Positions 24,651 through 31,414 of a stretch of DNA of 64,000 bases are shown here, piece after piece. The notes below the pieces were generated by a model that was given only the letters and a program-made list of their open reading frames with translations, was not told the DNA's origin and ran no database searches. The first letter of the stretch is position 1. Each line of letters begins with the position of its first letter. Source of the stretch: Escherichia phage L14; sequence record OQ992558.1. One strand, written 5' to 3'. The translations under genes were made by a program, and so were the position numbers.

Positions 24651-25766
24651 ATGGAAAAATTTATGGCAGAGTTTGGACAAGGATATGTCCAAACGCCATT
24701 TTTATCGGAAAGCAATTCAGTAAGATATAAAATAAGCATAGCGGGCTCTTGCCCGCTTTCTACTGCAGGGCCATATGTTAAATTTCAGGATAATCCCGTT
24801 GGAAATCAAACATTTAGTGCAGGTCTTCATTTAAGAGTTTTTGACCCTTCTACGGGAGCATTAGTTGATAGCAAGTCATATGCTTTTTCTGCTTCAAACA
24901 ATACAACATCTGCCGCTTTTGTCAGTTTCATGAATTCTTTGTCAAACAATAGACTTGTTGCTATATTAACTAGCGGAAAGGTTAATTTTCCTCCTGAAGT
25001 GGTATCTTGGTTAAGGGGAGCAGGAACTTCAGTTTTTCCATCAGATTCAGTATTGTCAAGATTTGACGTGTCATATGCTGCTTTTTATACTTCTTCTAAA
25101 AGAGCTATTGCATTAGAGCATGTTAAACTAAGTAATAGAAAAAGCACAGATGATTATCAAACTATTTTAGATGTTGTATTTGATAGTTTAGAAGACGTCG
25201 GAGCTACAGGATTTCCTAAAAGAACATATGAAAGTGTAGAGCAATTCATGTCAGCAGTTGGTGGAACTAATAACGAAATTGCGCGATTGCCAACTTCAGC
25301 TGCTATAAGTAAACTTTCTGACTACAATTTAATTCCTGGTGATGTTCTTTATCTTAAAGCACAACTATATGCTGATGCTGATTTACTTGATCTTGGAACT
25401 ACAAATATATCTATTCGTTTTTATGATGCATCAAATGGATATATTTCCTCGACCCAAGCTGAGTTTACTGGGCAAGCTGGGTCTTGGGAATTAAAAGAAG
25501 ATTATGTAGTTGTTCCTGAAAATGCAGTAGGATTTACGATATATGCACAAAGAACTGCTCAAGCAGGTCAAGGCGGCATGAGAAATTTAAGTTTTTCTGA
25601 AGTATCAAGAAATGGCGGCATTTCAAAACCTGCCGAATTTGGCGTCAACGGTATTCGCGTTAATTATGTCTGTGAATCGGCTTCACCTCCAGATATAATG
25701 GTACTTCCTACACAAGCCTCTTCTAAAACTGGCAAAGTGTTTGGACAGGAATTTAGAGAAGTTTAA
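24651..25766 (+). CDS. 35: gp35 long tail fibre hinge connector (371 aa)
   Basis: Position and size; AAGAGG RBS. Confidence 0.88.
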   Translation: MEKFMAEFGQGYVQTPFLSESNSVRYKISIAGSCPLSTAGPYVKFQDNPVGNQTFSAGLHLRVFDPSTGALVDSKSYAFSASNNTTSAAFVSFMNSLSNNRLVAILTSGKVNFPPEVVSWLRGAGTSVFPSDSVLSRFDVSYAAFYTSSKRAIALEHVKLSNRKSTDDYQTILDVVFDSLEDVGATGFPKRTYESVEQFMSAVGGTNNEIARLPTSAAISKLSDYNLIPGDVLYLKAQLYADADLLDLGTTNISIRFYDASNGYISSTQAEFTGQAGSWELKEDYVVVPENAVGFTIYAQRTAQAGQGGMRNLSFSEVSRNGGISKPAEFGVNGIRVNYVCESASPPDIMVLPTQASSKTGKVFGQEFREV

Positions 25767-26487: not shown

Positions 26488-29472
26488 ATGGCTACTTTAA
26501 AACAAATACAATTTAAAAGAAGCAAAATTGCAGGTCAACGTCCTGCAGCTTCAGTATTAGCCGAAGGTGAATTGGCTATAAACTTAAAAGATAAAACAAT
26601 TTTCACAAAAGATGACTCAGGTAGTGTTATAGAATTAGGTTTAAAATATGGAGGAACAATTGATGGTTCTTTAACTGTTAATGGAAATATAATTGGAAAT
26701 TTAACAGGTAACGCTGCAACTGCAACGAAATTAAAAACAGCACGAAAAATTAATGGTATATCCTTTGATGGGTCAAAAGATATCACGCTAACTCCATCTG
26801 ACATAAATGTCAATAGCACAACGTTTATAAAAAATAATGGCGAATTACCTGTTGATGCTAATTTAGATACGTATGGGCCTGTTGAAGAATATCTTGGAGT
26901 TTGGTCGAAAGCAACTTCAACCAACGCTCAACCAGCAAATAAATTTCCAGAAGAAAATGCTGTAGGTGTGCTAGAAGTATTTGTGGCCGGTCAATTTGCT
27001 GGTACTCAGAGATATACAACTAGATACGGAAATGTTTATATTCGTTCCTTGACTGCTACATGGAACGGAGTAAATGGTCCGTGGAGTGTGTGGCGAAATA
27101 TTCAATCCGGTACTCGTCCACTGTCAACAACAATTGATCTTAATGATCTAGGAGGCGCTGAACACTTTGGTTTGTGGCGAAATAGTTCAAATTCCATTGC
27201 TACCTTTGACAGAAATTTCCCAGAAGAGGGGTCGTCAGCTCAAGGTCTTTTGGAAGTATATGAAGGTGGAAAATATTCTCGTACACAAAGATATACAACC
27301 AGATTTGGTGTTGTATATACTCGTTGTCTTGCTGCCGCGTGGGATGCTTCCGCGCCTAAATGGGGACCGTGGCAACAAGTCGGTAATGTCACACCAGCGA
27401 CTTTCTATGACGGAGATCTGAATGATTTTAAAACCCCTGGGTTATATAATATTTTAGGCACTGATGCCGTTATTAACTGTCCTACAGGTGAAGGTTTGCC
27501 GCCTGTTATTATTGGTTTACTGGAAGTTAAACAGCGTGCTTCCGGTGGTGCTATTTTCCAAAAATTTACTACTGCCGGAACGGGTGCAACTACTCGCGGA
27601 CGTATTTTTGAGCGTGCATATACTGGTGGTGCGTGGGGCGCATGGAACGAAGTATATACATCTTATTCTCTGCCAATTACTTTGGGTATGGGTGGTATTA
27701 AAACTCAATTAGCGGAGCTAGATTGGCAAACATTTGATTTTGTTCCTGGTAGTATGTTTAGCGTTCCTTTGAACAAAATAAAGAACATGCCAGCAAATAT
27801 GGATTGGGGCACGATTGATGGAAACTTGATTATGTTTTCCGTCGGTCCTAGCGAACACACTAGCACAGGGCGTACTGTTCAGGTTTGGCGTGGTACTGTA
27901 TCCCAGACAAACTACCGTTATTTTGTCGTTCGTGTATTCGGTAATTCAGGAAATAGAGCTTGCACAGTTCGTCGTGTTGTTCTTGAAGATGGTCGCCACA
28001 AATGGACAGCGCAACAAGATTTTAATGGTGCTGTTAACTTCGGTGCTCCTACCAATTTTAACTCTACTGTTAACCTTAATAACACTACCACTTTTAAAAC
28101 AGAAGTTAAATTTCGCTCATTGAATGCATTCCGTATGTATGGCGGAAAATTTGGTACATTTTTACGTAATGATGGAGAGAGTCTTTATATTCTTTCCACC
28201 GACGAAGATGATCAAGATGGAAACTTTAATACAAATAGACCTTTCCGTTATGAATTAAGAACTGGTGATGTTACTTTGGGTGGTGCTAGTGGTGCTAACG
28301 TTTTAAAATTAAAACGTGATTCTCTCACCGCATTTTTTGGTGGTGATATTAACATGAAAGGCTTGATGACTTTTGACGCCGGACGTTTAGGATCACGAGA
28401 TTATTTTAAATTTAACCATTGGGGTGATAGCAATAACGCTCGTGATAACATTATTCAGTTAGAAGATAGCAAAGGCGTTCATTTTTCCACTGAACGTACT
28501 TTAGCGACTGGTGCAATTAAAACTAAATTCTTTGGTGAAGTTGAATCAACTGGTCGATTGACTATTAAACGTCCGGGTGATGCGATTGTATTATCGACTA
28601 CAGCCAGCAACTCTTTGCATATTCGTGGTGACGTAGACGGGACTGGTAACTGGTATATTGGCAAGGGTGGTGCTGATAATGGATTAGCGTTCTATAGTTA
28701 TGCTACTAATGCTGGTGTATACATTACAAACGGAGGGGATATCGCGCTAAGTCCAAAAGGTGTCGAAATGGCTCAGGTCAATAACGTTCGATTATATGTT
28801 CATGGTGAACGTTGGACCGCTAGTCAACCAGGTGATTGGGGTAGTCAGTGGCAAGTGGAAGCGCCAATATTCGTCGATCATGGTTATGTTTCACAGGATT
28901 GTTATTATCCAATTATTAAAGGAAGAAGTGTAATCACCAATCAAGGGTATGTAACTGCCGTCGATCTTGGTATTCGTCGTGTCAATAACAATTGGGGACA
29001 AGCAATTATTCGTGTTGGATCTGCAGAGGCATCGCCAGCGGCTGGACACCCTAACGCGGTATTTGAATTTCATTACGACGGTACTTTCTATTCTCCTGGT
29101 AATGGTAATTTTAGCGATGTGTATATTCGTTCTGACTCCCGTCTCAAGATTAATAAAGAAGAATTAGAATATGGAGCGGTCGAAAAAGTTTGCCGACTAA
29201 AAGTTTATATTTACGATAAAGTTAAGTCTATTAAAGACCGTAGTGTTATTAAACGTGAAGTTGGTATTATTGCTCAGGACCTTGAAAAGGAATTGCCGGA
29301 AGCTGTATCTAAAGTTGAAGTTGATGGATCTGATGTTCTGACAATTTCTAACTCTGCTGTGAATGCTCTTTTAATTAAGGCCATTCAGGAAATGAGCGAA
29401 GAAATTAAAGAATTGAAAACACCTTTCTTCACTAAAATTGCTCGCAAAATTAGTAATTATTTTAAATTCTAA
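26488..29472 (+). CDS. 37: gp37 long tail fibre distal subunit (994 aa) with C-terminal chaperone-like domain
   Basis: Position/size; N-terminal region similar to gp36 N-terminus; internal duplicated QRYTTR-G-VY-R-L motifs. Confidence 0.9.
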
Positions 29473-29504
29473 CAGCAGGGGGCTTTGCCCCTTTGGAGAA
29501 AATT

Positions 29505-30287
29505 ATGGCAGTAGTTGGTGTTCCTGGTTGGATTGGTAGTTCATCCGTAAATGAAACAGGACAACGATGGATGAGTCAAGCGGCTGGTCAATTAAGATTG
29601 GGTATTCCTTGCTGGATGAGTCAATTTGCAGGTCGCTCAAGAGAAATTATTCACACGCTTGGAGCAGACCATAACTTCAATGGTCAATGGTTCCGAGATA
29701 GATGTTTTGAGGCAGGTAGTGCACCTATAGTGTTTAATATCACTGGAGATTTAGTATCATATTCTAAAGATGTTCCTTTATTCTTCATGTACGGAGATAC
29801 ACCGAATGAATATGTTCAGTTGAACATACATGGTGTAACGATGTATGGCCGTGGCGGGAATGGCGGTAGCAATAGTCCTGGCTCAGCTGGGGGTCATTGT
29901 ATTCAAAATGATATTGGTGGGAGACTAAGAATTAATAATGGTGGAGCTATTGCTGGCGGCGGTGGCGGCGGGGGCGGCGGGTATTATTCTCCTTTTTCAC
30001 AAATGAGATTGACCTTTGGCGGTGGCGGCGGTCGTCCGTTTGGCGCACCGGGCGGATCTATTGATATGCAATCAGGAGCAACTGCTGGTACTATTTCTGC
30101 GCCAGGCGCAGGGTCTGTGAACGGTATCTACAACGGCGGGTCTGGTGGTGAAGTTGGCTCCGCAGGAGGTAGATGTAATATTCGTGGTCAAGGATATGAA
30201 TACGATGGCGGAGCTGCTGGTTATGCCGTCATAGGGTCTACACCGACATGGCAAAACGTTGGAGCAATATATGGTCCAAGAGTATAA
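29505..30287 (+). CDS. 38: gp38 tail-fibre adhesin with glycine-rich motifs (260 aa; ATG at 29505 with GGAG RBS)
   Basis: Poly-Gly runs ([18 protein letters not shown]) as in T2-type gp38; unlike the 183-aa T4 chaperone. Confidence 0.85.
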
Positions 30288-30319
30288 TTTTTGAATAAAT
30301 ACCCTTAAAAGGAGGGTCT

Positions 30320-30976
30320 ATGGCAGCACCTAGAATATCATTTTCGCCCTCTGATATTCTATTTGGTGTTCTAGATCGCTTGTTCAAAGATAACGCTACC
30401 GGGAAAGTTCTTGCTTCCCGGGTAGCTGTCGTAATTCTTTTGTTTATGATGGCGATTGTTTGGTATAGGGGAGATAGTTTCTTTGAGTACTATAAGCAAT
30501 CAAAGTATGAAACATACAGTGAAATTATTGAAAAGGAAAGAAATGCACGCTTTGAATCTGTCGCCCTGGAACAACTCCAGATAGTTCACATATCATCTGA
30601 GGCAGACTTTAGTGCGGTGTATTCTTTCCGCCCTAAAAACTTAAACTATTTTGTTGATATTATAGCATATGAAGGAAAATTACCTTCAACAATAAGTGAA
30701 AAATCACTTGGAGGATATCCTGTTGATAAAACTATGGATGAATATACAGTTCATTTAAATGGACGTCATTATTATTCCGACTCAAAATTTGCTTTTTTAC
30801 CAACTAAAAAGCCTACTCCCGAAATAAACTACATGTACAGTTGTCCATATTTTAATTTGGATAATATCTATGCTGGAACGATAACCATGTACTGGTATAG
30901 AAATGATCATATAAGTAATGACCGCCTTGAATCAATATGTGCTCAGGCGGCCAGAATATTAGGAAGGGCTAAATAA
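30320..30976 (+). CDS. t: holin (218 aa)
   Basis: Near-identical to recalled T4 holin T (MAAPRISFSPSDILFGVLDRLFKDNATGKV...). Confidence 0.95.
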   Translation: MAAPRISFSPSDILFGVLDRLFKDNATGKVLASRVAVVILLFMMAIVWYRGDSFFEYYKQSKYETYSEIIEKERNARFESVALEQLQIVHISSEADFSAVYSFRPKNLNYFVDIIAYEGKLPSTISEKSLGGYPVDKTMDEYTVHLNGRHYYSDSKFAFLPTKKPTPEINYMYSCPYFNLDNIYAGTITMYWYRNDHISNDRLESICAQAARILGRAK

Positions 30977-31249
30977 TTATTTGTTCGTATACATTTCTAG
31001 ATATCGATATACACCCTCAAAACCCTCGTTGAATTCATCGATGAGGGTTTTCTTATCTTCTTGAGTTAATTCAGAAACAATTTTACGAAATGAATTCTGA
31101 TTTAACTTTCTACCTTCATGCGTTACTCCAATCTCATTAAGAAATGCAATAAAATTAGCACGATTCTCAACAATATCTTCTCTGGAAAATTTAATCAAAA
31201 TAGATGCAACAGTAATAATTTCACGAACTGTATCAATGTTTTTATTCAT
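30977..31249 (-). CDS. asiA: anti-sigma70 factor AsiA (90 aa)
   Basis: Matches recalled T4 AsiA; stop codon abuts the t stop (TAATTA). Confidence 0.92.
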   Translation of the reverse strand: MNKNIDTVREIITVASILIKFSREDIVENRANFIAFLNEIGVTHEGRKLNQNSFRKIVSELTQEDKKTLIDEFNEGFEGVYRYLEMYTNK

Positions 31250-31261
31250 TAACTATACCAC

Positions 31262-31414
31262 TCAATTAGTTGACTTTGTTATAATATCATCAGACGCTTG
31301 ATTTGTAAACTGGTCTGTGTTATTTTCTTCAAAAATTTTTTCTACGAATTCCTTGAACGACTCGCGTTCCTGAGCTACATTATGCTCGATTACCTTTTCA
31401 AGATTATGACTCAT
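31262..31414 (-). CDS. small acidic ORF (50 aa)
   Basis: Hand-translated; ATGA overlap with upstream ORF stop; below ORF-track size cut-off. Confidence 0.35.
   Translation of the reverse strand: MSHNLEKVIEHNVAQERESFKEFVEKIFEENNTDQFTNQASDDIITKSTN

Follow-up and report, generated by a model that had tools for sequence, protein, structure and literature searches.

Gene 38 of Escherichia phage L14 encodes a protein that, with a probability of about 90%, is a monomeric receptor-recognising tip adhesin of the T2/T6/S16 type from a Tequatrovirus (T-even phage). The gene occupies positions 29505..30287 of the window, by which we mean the whole stretch of 64,000 nucleotides of record OQ992558.1 that was analysed. 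All genes and gene segments given with coordinates below lie on the + strand. A preliminary description of this DNA had already proposed a T2/T6-type tip adhesin, and this is supported by the Pfam families, the PDB sequence matches, the predicted fold and the homologues of the protein, and no result speaks against it. The finding is correct but already known, as L14 gp38 is an ordinary member of a thoroughly studied family.

Gene 38, its family and its neighbours

The gene is a single open reading frame of 260 aa that runs from an ATG at 29505 to a TAA stop at 30285–30287. When extended mechanically to its maximum, the frame opens at a TTG at 29493. Judged by the sequence, the ATG is the better start, because a putative GGAG ribosome-binding site (29496..29499) precedes it with a 5-nt spacer, the homologues have their N-terminus there and the Gp38_N profile is aligned from residue 1 (profile positions 1–40 with residues 1–42).

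Glycine makes up 62 of the 260 residues (24%), with 11% in residues 1–114 and 34% in residues 115–260. The glycine runs named in the preliminary description are present exactly at its coordinates: a run of nine (G9, residues 151–159) is followed by YY (to 161), and FGGGGGRP spans residues 171–178. Among 20,000 shuffles of the gp38 composition, 3 had a G9 run and 121 had two runs of five or more glycines. The stretch 29850–30250 has a GC content of 54%, compared with 35% in the window. We considered it as a foreign compositional island and rejected this, since the GGN codons account fully for the elevated value.

Family membership is clear. The protein matches Pfam PF05268 (GP38, “Phage tail fibre adhesin Gp38”) over the whole profile with 240.2 bits (cut-off 25; 3e-71) and PF21721 (Gp38_N) with 72 bits (cut-off 25; 3.9e-20). 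[quoted passage not shown] The second was the gp38 chain of the S16 gp37–gp38 complex (6F45 chain D, 2.7e-49), and there was no real match beyond these two. In a search of 5.8 billion proteins, those homologues that are named among the matches listed are called gp38, receptor-recognising or tail-fibre adhesin proteins.

We built an AlphaFold2 model of gp38 on an alignment of 56 sequences from database homologues (alignment A2). Its mean pLDDT is 87.6, with low values confined to the first ∼30 residues; the corresponding residues of S16 gp38 become ordered through contact with gp37. A Foldseek search of the PDB with the model returned 9V85_C (E 8.6e-27, target-normalised TM 0.89, rmsd 2.2 Å) and 6F45_D (E 2.5e-21, target-normalised TM 0.79) and no further structure with an E-value below 4. 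The model thus predicts, by its match to both structures, a beta-helix carrying a polyglycine-II (PGII) sandwich.

The genes around gene 38 are those expected of a T-even phage tail fibre region. Gene 37 (26488..29472) encodes the distal half-fibre subunit of 994 aa with the Pfam domains Gp34_trimer and Peptidase_S74, and its product is equal in length to T6 gp37 and 92% identical to it across all 994 aa. As gene 37 ends at 29472 and gene 38 starts at 29505, gene 38 lies directly downstream of a T6-like gene 37. It is followed by its canonical downstream neighbour, the holin gene t (30320..30976; Pfam Phage_holin_T, 1.9e-117), which has the same place in T4, T6, T2 and UGKSEcP2. The order g34-g35-g36-g37-g38-t matches that of T6, T2 and T4, and an opposite-strand ORF lies beyond t where T4 and T6 have asiA. 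Over the 24 kb around gene 38, many Tequatrovirus genomes are about 96–97% identical to L14, the highest value in the phage collection searched being ∼97%.

The spacer between genes 37 and 38 contains the hairpin GGGGC-TTT-GCCCC (∼29477–29491). It was rejected as a regulatory signal: its folding energy is −12.8 kcal/mol, but the z-score against shuffled sequences is only −0.56. Promoter-like and terminator-like matches in 29000–31300 showed no excess over the shuffled expectation.

The same gene name, at the same place between g37 and t, belongs in T4 to a protein of another kind, and the GenBank records of some homologues are still labelled “distal long tail fiber assembly catalyst”. Both observations would fit a reading in which L14 gp38 is a T4-type non-structural chaperone that aids gp37 trimerisation and is absent from the virion. 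Comparison with T4 gp38, taken from NC_000866, rules this out. BLASTP gave E=1.9 and no alignment beyond 12 residues, T4 gp38 (183 aa) matches no Pfam family while L14 gp38 matches GP38 and Gp38_N, and a tblastn search of the window with T4 gp38 found no similar ORF (best E 0.66). The predicted fold of L14 gp38, moreover, matches solved adhesins only. The closest homologues are not T4-type chaperones either, as 120 of 120 among the matches listed carry PF05268. Finally, T6 g38 amber mutants form virions of normal morphology and have lost adsorption (PMC3157838), and gp38 has been demonstrated at the fibre tip and found to be needed for adsorption in T6, T2, K3, Ox2 and S16 (PMC3157838, PMC6851490). 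Because the T6 amber phenotype and the sequence, fold and gp37 evidence combine in this way, the chance that L14 gp38 is a T4-type chaperone is vanishingly small. The preliminary description had drawn the same distinction, which the E-value of 1.9 and the lack of a common Pfam family bear out.

The gp37 evidence consists of a Peptidase_S74 intramolecular-chaperone domain at aa 882–940 of the protein (29131..29307; Pfam PF13884, 6.4e-10), which is also found in T6 gp37. This fits phages of the T2/T6/S16 type, where gp37 folds with the help of its own C-terminal chaperone domain, the domain is cut off and gp38 then caps the tip. By analogy, the domain in L14 is presumed to be auto-cleaved ahead of gp38 binding, and chaperoning of fibre assembly would fall to this domain rather than to gp38. 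A dual role, in which gp38 is an adhesin and in addition a folding or stabilising factor for the gp37 tip, could be deduced from the tight 1:3 gp38–gp37 complex described for S16 (PMC6851490). The intramolecular chaperone that gp37 has of its own speaks against it. So do T6 mutants in which a g38 amber codon ends the protein ahead of GRM3 or GRM5: their virions still have normal morphology (PMC3157838). These mutants retain the N-terminal domain, for which a minor stabilising role is thus conceivable. We consider a dual role quite improbable and treat L14 gp38 as a tip adhesin in what follows.

Domain layout of gp38

The anatomy of gp38 was derived from an alignment to the proteins of T6, RB5, PST, FL23, T2, FL33, PP01 and S16 together with a mapping of the PP01 loops, and the column entropies were calculated from A2. 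This comparison with T2/T6 and other gp38 adhesins delimited the conserved glycine-rich motifs (GRMs) and the hypervariable segments (HVS). In the C-terminal half of the protein, five GRMs alternate with four HVS, as is typical of the family.

The N-terminal attachment domain (aa 1–46, 29505..29642), of which Gp38_N covers aa 1–42, contains Trp9, Trp22 and Trp37. The first two are invariant in A2 and the third is present in 48 of the 56 sequences. All three line up with Trp residues of S16 gp38, in whose complex the gp37 trimer has three symmetry-equivalent pockets that are filled by three conserved Trp (PMC6851490). By homology, one L14 gp38 would dock on the tip of the gp37 trimer via W9, W22 and W37 and so cap the fibre. 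The pLDDT of this domain is 46–71, as expected because gp37 is absent from the model. An internal repeat of the domain (29568–29597 and 29613–29642) matches two of its three Trp docking motifs.

The central beta-helix (aa 47–114, 29643..29846) contains beta strands, has a pLDDT of 79–97 and can be aligned with the equivalent domain of PP01 and S16 gp38. It is completed by strands from the C-terminus, and together these parts are predicted to form a small beta-helix bearing the “polyglycine sandwich”.

The first glycine-rich motif, GRM1 (GRGGNGG, aa 115–121, 29847..29867), has an entropy of 0.31 bits and is 71% Gly, with G115, R116, G117, G118 and G120 invariant. The HVS1 region follows (aa 122–145, 29868..29939; 0.84 bits). 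Loop mapping identified its tip, SNSP(G), as the counterpart of PP01 loop A, and the remainder (GSAGG and strands) is conserved. GRM2 (aa 146–159, 29940..29981; 0.61 bits) contains the G9 run, which corresponds to PGII helix 3 of S16, formed there by 151-GGGGGGGG-158 (PMC6851490). HVS2 (aa 160–171, 29982..30017; 2.01 bits) is of the T6/RB5 type and is the counterpart of PP01 loop B. RB5 and FL23 share its exact sequence, and PST deviates from it at S165P, Q166R and M167I.

In GRM3 (aa 172–184, 30018..30056; 0.43 bits), G173–G176, P178 and G180 are invariant. In HVS3 (aa 185–210, 30057..30134; 1.53 bits), loop mapping identified GSIDMQ as equivalent to loop C of PP01 and VNGIY as equivalent to loop D. 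GRM4 (aa 211–222, 30135..30170) was delimited from the alignments, and HVS4 (aa 223–234, 30171..30206; 2.07 bits) is the counterpart of PP01 loop E. The last part of the protein (30207..30284), defined by the alignments and the model, comprises GRM5 (aa 235–244) and conserved C-terminal strands (aa 245–260) that rejoin the beta-helix. Glycine runs split by variable segments had been noted in the preliminary description, which is in good agreement with a mean entropy of 0.31–0.61 bits in GRM1–3 vs. 1.53–2.07 bits in HVS2–4.

In S16, PGII helices made up of the glycine motifs are arranged in a three-layered lattice, whose distal loops are the HVS (PMC6851490). If L14 gp38 follows this geometry, its glycine-rich motifs would be stacked PGII helices that make up a rigid scaffold, and the scaffold would present five distal loops, the HVS, to the extracellular loops of an outer-membrane protein. 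For PP01, cross-linking and mutagenesis assigned contact with the receptor to loops D and E, of which loop E controls specificity (PMC12892980). Chimeras and point mutants in T6, RB5, PST, CM8 and RB68 have likewise led to the conclusion that the HVS determine host range (PMC3157838; bioRxiv 10.64898/2026.04.02.716166). That the variable segments are host-range determinants, as the preliminary description suggested, is hence established in publications through chimeras, point mutants and cross-linking.

Predicted receptor and variation of the loops

To compare L14 gp38 with adhesins of known receptor, we used the identity over aa 115–260; the sequences of the receptor-typed FL and AV phages were named matches from the protein search. 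UGKSEcP2 is 100% identical over this part. The Tsx-dependent phages RB5 (97.9%), FL23 (95.2%) and T6 (94.5%) come next, followed by PST (92.5%), which depends on Tsx, OmpA, FhuA and LPS. Lower values were found for the OmpA phages FL18 (72.7%), M1 (68.7%) and FL08 and AV119 (both 55%), and for PP01 (OmpC, 54%), T2 (FadL, 50%) and FL33 (OmpF, 46%). Identity in the HVS only was 97.3% for RB5, 94.6% for FL23 and 91.9% for T6. It was at most 65% for FL18 and at most 36% for the OmpA phages FL08 and AV119 and the OmpC, OmpF and FadL types. By its HVS1–4 set, which is common to T6, RB3, RB5 and FL23, L14 gp38 is assigned to the T6/RB5 subtype, which the preliminary description does not name.

At the sites that distinguish PST, where PST has P, R, I and I, L14 gp38 has the RB5 state (S165, Q166, M167 and G207). 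Because the RBD is close to those of the Tsx-dependent RB5, FL23 and T6 and has the RB5 state at these positions, we predict that the primary receptor is very probably Tsx, the nucleoside channel of E. coli, to which the T6/RB5-type loops would bind. RB5 and all T6-like adhesins were Tsx-dependent when assayed on Keio mutants (Trojet et al., PMC3157838). FL23 needs Tsx, and the receptor was found to be predictable from gp38 phylogeny (Lutz et al., PMC12032242). The same was found for 54 gp38 adhesins, and allele swaps showed that the choice of porin is set by the region from HVS2 onwards (bioRxiv 10.64898/2026.04.02.716166).

Small changes in the HVS can nevertheless retarget gp38, as seen with PST vs. 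T6 and SV76 vs. T2 (PMC3157838), and a single HVS3 substitution in RB68, Q206L, switches the receptor from OmpF to OmpW (bioRxiv 10.64898/2026.04.02.716166). PST is only a few HVS2 and HVS3 residues away from T6, yet it also needs OmpA, FhuA and LPS and infects Yersinia (PMC3157838). The RBD of L14 differs from that of RB5 at N210S, S213G and Y231S (L14 residue, position, RB5 residue), all in or beside loops D and E. RBDs identical or near-identical to that of L14 gp38 occur in phages of Yersinia pseudotuberculosis, namely ZN18, fPS-65 and the PYps phages. Through such loop substitutions, the primary receptor could be something other than Tsx, or Tsx could be insufficient alone; OmpA, a Yersinia outer-membrane protein or a PST-like dual need are conceivable. 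This is unlikely for several reasons. The distinguishing positions are in the RB5 and not the PST state, and the tested T6-like adhesins, PST included, all use Tsx on E. coli (PMC3157838). The identity of the RBD to the OmpA types does not exceed 73%, and gp38 phylogeny, like k-mer models, is a reliable predictor of the receptor in such tight clusters (PMC12032242; bioRxiv 10.64898/2026.04.02.716166). Tsx thus stays the predicted primary receptor. It may be accompanied by low-efficiency cross-recognition of Yersinia, which RB3 and RB5 are reported to show.

Within GRM2 and GRM3, the Gly codons form a 14-nt exact direct repeat, GGCGGTGGCGGCGG. GRM2 contains a third copy, 93% identical, whose start precedes the GRM3 copy by 51 nt. 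Yersinia phage ZN18 has a tandem duplication of a 51-nt unit across these repeats, which yields a second HVS2. An 18-aa duplication of HVS2 on a slightly different background was found in PYps47T via the protein cluster. A single-piece alignment is the expected sign of a record carrying the duplication; among the best 30 matches of a megablast search with the ZN18 gene, the only one was with ZN18, whose genome is present in two records.

These observations lead to a tentative proposal with two variants, which we think is doubtful. The GGCGGTGGCGGCGG repeats, 51 nt apart, might be a substrate for slippage or unequal crossover that recurrently duplicates HVS2, giving rise to the adhesins with six GRMs and two HVS2 in the Y. 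pseudotuberculosis phages ZN18 and PYps47T. Alternatively, the loop D and E substitutions relative to RB5 might already shift the Tsx variants or other receptors that are recognised. If duplication is driven by the repeats, the L14 allele would be one step away from a host-range-expanding variant.

Relation to known gp38 adhesins

The exact 260-aa sequence is public as WNV49386.1, “tail fibers protein [Escherichia phage L14]”, and is found on 12 contigs. The protein cluster at 90% identity has 155 members, among them RB3, RB5, UGKSEcP1, UGKSEcP2, fPS-65 and HP3.1. Its representative is labelled Bacillus cereus, which most likely reflects a contaminated assembly. In GenBank, several entries of clear adhesins are still named after the T4 protein, as “distal long tail fiber assembly catalyst”.

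All main features of the protein have been described for its relatives. The GRM/HVS architecture was published by Trojet et al. in 2011 (PMC3157838) and goes back to earlier studies that these authors cite. The PGII-sandwich structure was published by Dunne et al. in 2018 (PMC6851490) and, with 9V85, in 2026 (PMC12892980). Prediction of the receptor from HVS alleles was published by Lutz et al. in 2025 (PMC12032242) and in bioRxiv 10.64898/2026.04.02.716166. The present result helps annotation and the practical prediction of host range and contains no new biology. With Tsx as the predicted receptor, bacteria would be expected to become resistant first through loss of Tsx.

The closest relatives are nearly identical. 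The gp38 proteins of UGKSEcP1 and UGKSEcP2 differ from that of L14 only at I34V, and RB5 gp38 differs by four substitutions, I34V, N210S, S213G and Y231S (L14 residue, position, RB5 residue). T6 gp38 is 93% identical overall, and 10 of its 18 substitutions lie in the N-terminal and beta-helix parts. The gp38 proteins of T6, RB3 and RB5 (Trojet et al., 2011, PMC3157838) have the same length (260 or 261 aa), the same GRM1–5/HVS1–4 layout and the same gene position, and we found no difference in architecture between them and L14 gp38.

Beyond this group, the three modules of gp38 assort independently among phages. FL33 gp38 is 96% identical in the N-terminal domain and 93% in the beta-helix, but only 46% in the RBD. 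FL23 gp38 has a beta-helix that is 98.5% and an RBD that is 95% identical, but an N-terminal domain that is 52% identical. In IME339, the RBD is 79% identical, but the beta-helix 35%. Trojet et al. (PMC3157838) had already reported this modular mosaicism of gp38.

Of the adhesins with solved structures, the RBD of PP01 gp38 (9V85; PMC12892980), which binds OmpC, has the same beta-helix and PGII-sandwich fold. The two proteins are 68% identical across 220 columns and 97% in the beta-helix part, but loops A to E of PP01 are unlike those of L14 (HVS identity 35%), and PP01 binds O157 OmpC through loops D and E. The gp37–gp38 tip of S16 (6F45; Dunne et al., 2018) has the same three-domain plan, in which an attachment domain with Trp residues is combined with a beta-helix and a polyglycine sandwich. 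S16 gp38 is 44% identical overall, its HVS are unlike those of L14, and S16 binds Salmonella OmpC.

T4 gp38 differs from all of these. It is 183 aa long, unrelated in sequence and devoid of glycine motifs, and it is not in the virion; the receptor of T4 is bound by the gp37 tip. L14 would thus read its host via a detachable, engineerable gp38 tip, whereas T4 does so via its gp37 needle.

Direct repeat in the glycine-rich motifs and duplication of HVS2

The glycine codons of the second and third glycine-rich motifs of gp38 (GRM2, aa 146–159, and GRM3, aa 172–184) contain a 14-nt direct repeat, GGCGGTGGCGGCGG, which is found at window positions 29958–29971, 29967–29980 and 30018–30031. The spacing between a GRM2 copy and the GRM3 copy is 51 nt. 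A 51-nt unit covering these repeats is duplicated in tandem in Yersinia phage ZN18 (L009:562–663), which yields a second loop of the hypervariable segment HVS2 and an additional glycine motif. An HVS2 duplication of 18 aa is seen in a different background in the 278 aa gp38 of PYps47T (P0131), and the isolation host of each phage was Y. pseudotuberculosis. The published description gives only “an insertion of 15 aa.”

The GC content of positions 29850–30250 is 54% compared to 35% window-wide. The 62 GGN glycine codons account for this difference fully, and the GC content therefore does not point to horizontal acquisition.

N-terminal attachment domain and upstream spacer

An imperfect 30-nt direct repeat (77%) is located at positions 29568–29597 and 29613–29642, within the N-terminal attachment domain of gp38. 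Its units encode the Trp motifs with W22 and W37, and the third motif of this kind contains W9. In phage S16, three such motifs anchor a single gp38 molecule to the three-fold tip of gp37 (PMC6851490). The repeat suggests that the attachment domain arose through internal repetition.

The 32-nt spacer between genes 37 and 38 contains a small GC hairpin, GGGGC-TTT-GCCCC (29477–29491), just upstream of the gene 38 ribosome binding site. The folding energy of this hairpin could not be told apart from that of shuffled sequence (z = -0.56).

Annotation of gene 38 in public records

The cluster representative PJZ22119.1 (P0001), a 99% identical gp38, is labeled “Bacillus cereus,” probably due to a contaminated assembly. 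T6 gp38 (L002:8728–9513) and several further adhesins retain the label “distal long tail fiber assembly catalyst,” and in the PST record (L007:80–883) the annotated start of gene 38 precedes the consensus ATG by seven codons.

Domains of gp35 and gp37

The hinge connector gp35 (24651–25766) has a weak Pfam match to ILEI (PF15711) at residues 58–112 (8e-08, 33 bits; cut-off 27).

A Peptidase_S74 intramolecular chaperone domain is present at aa 882–940 of gp37 (29131–29307). The likely autocleavage site is close to the SDSRLK motif around aa 880, and a cut at this point would remove about 113 residues prior to gp38 binding. T6 gp37 likewise ends with a Peptidase_S74 domain.
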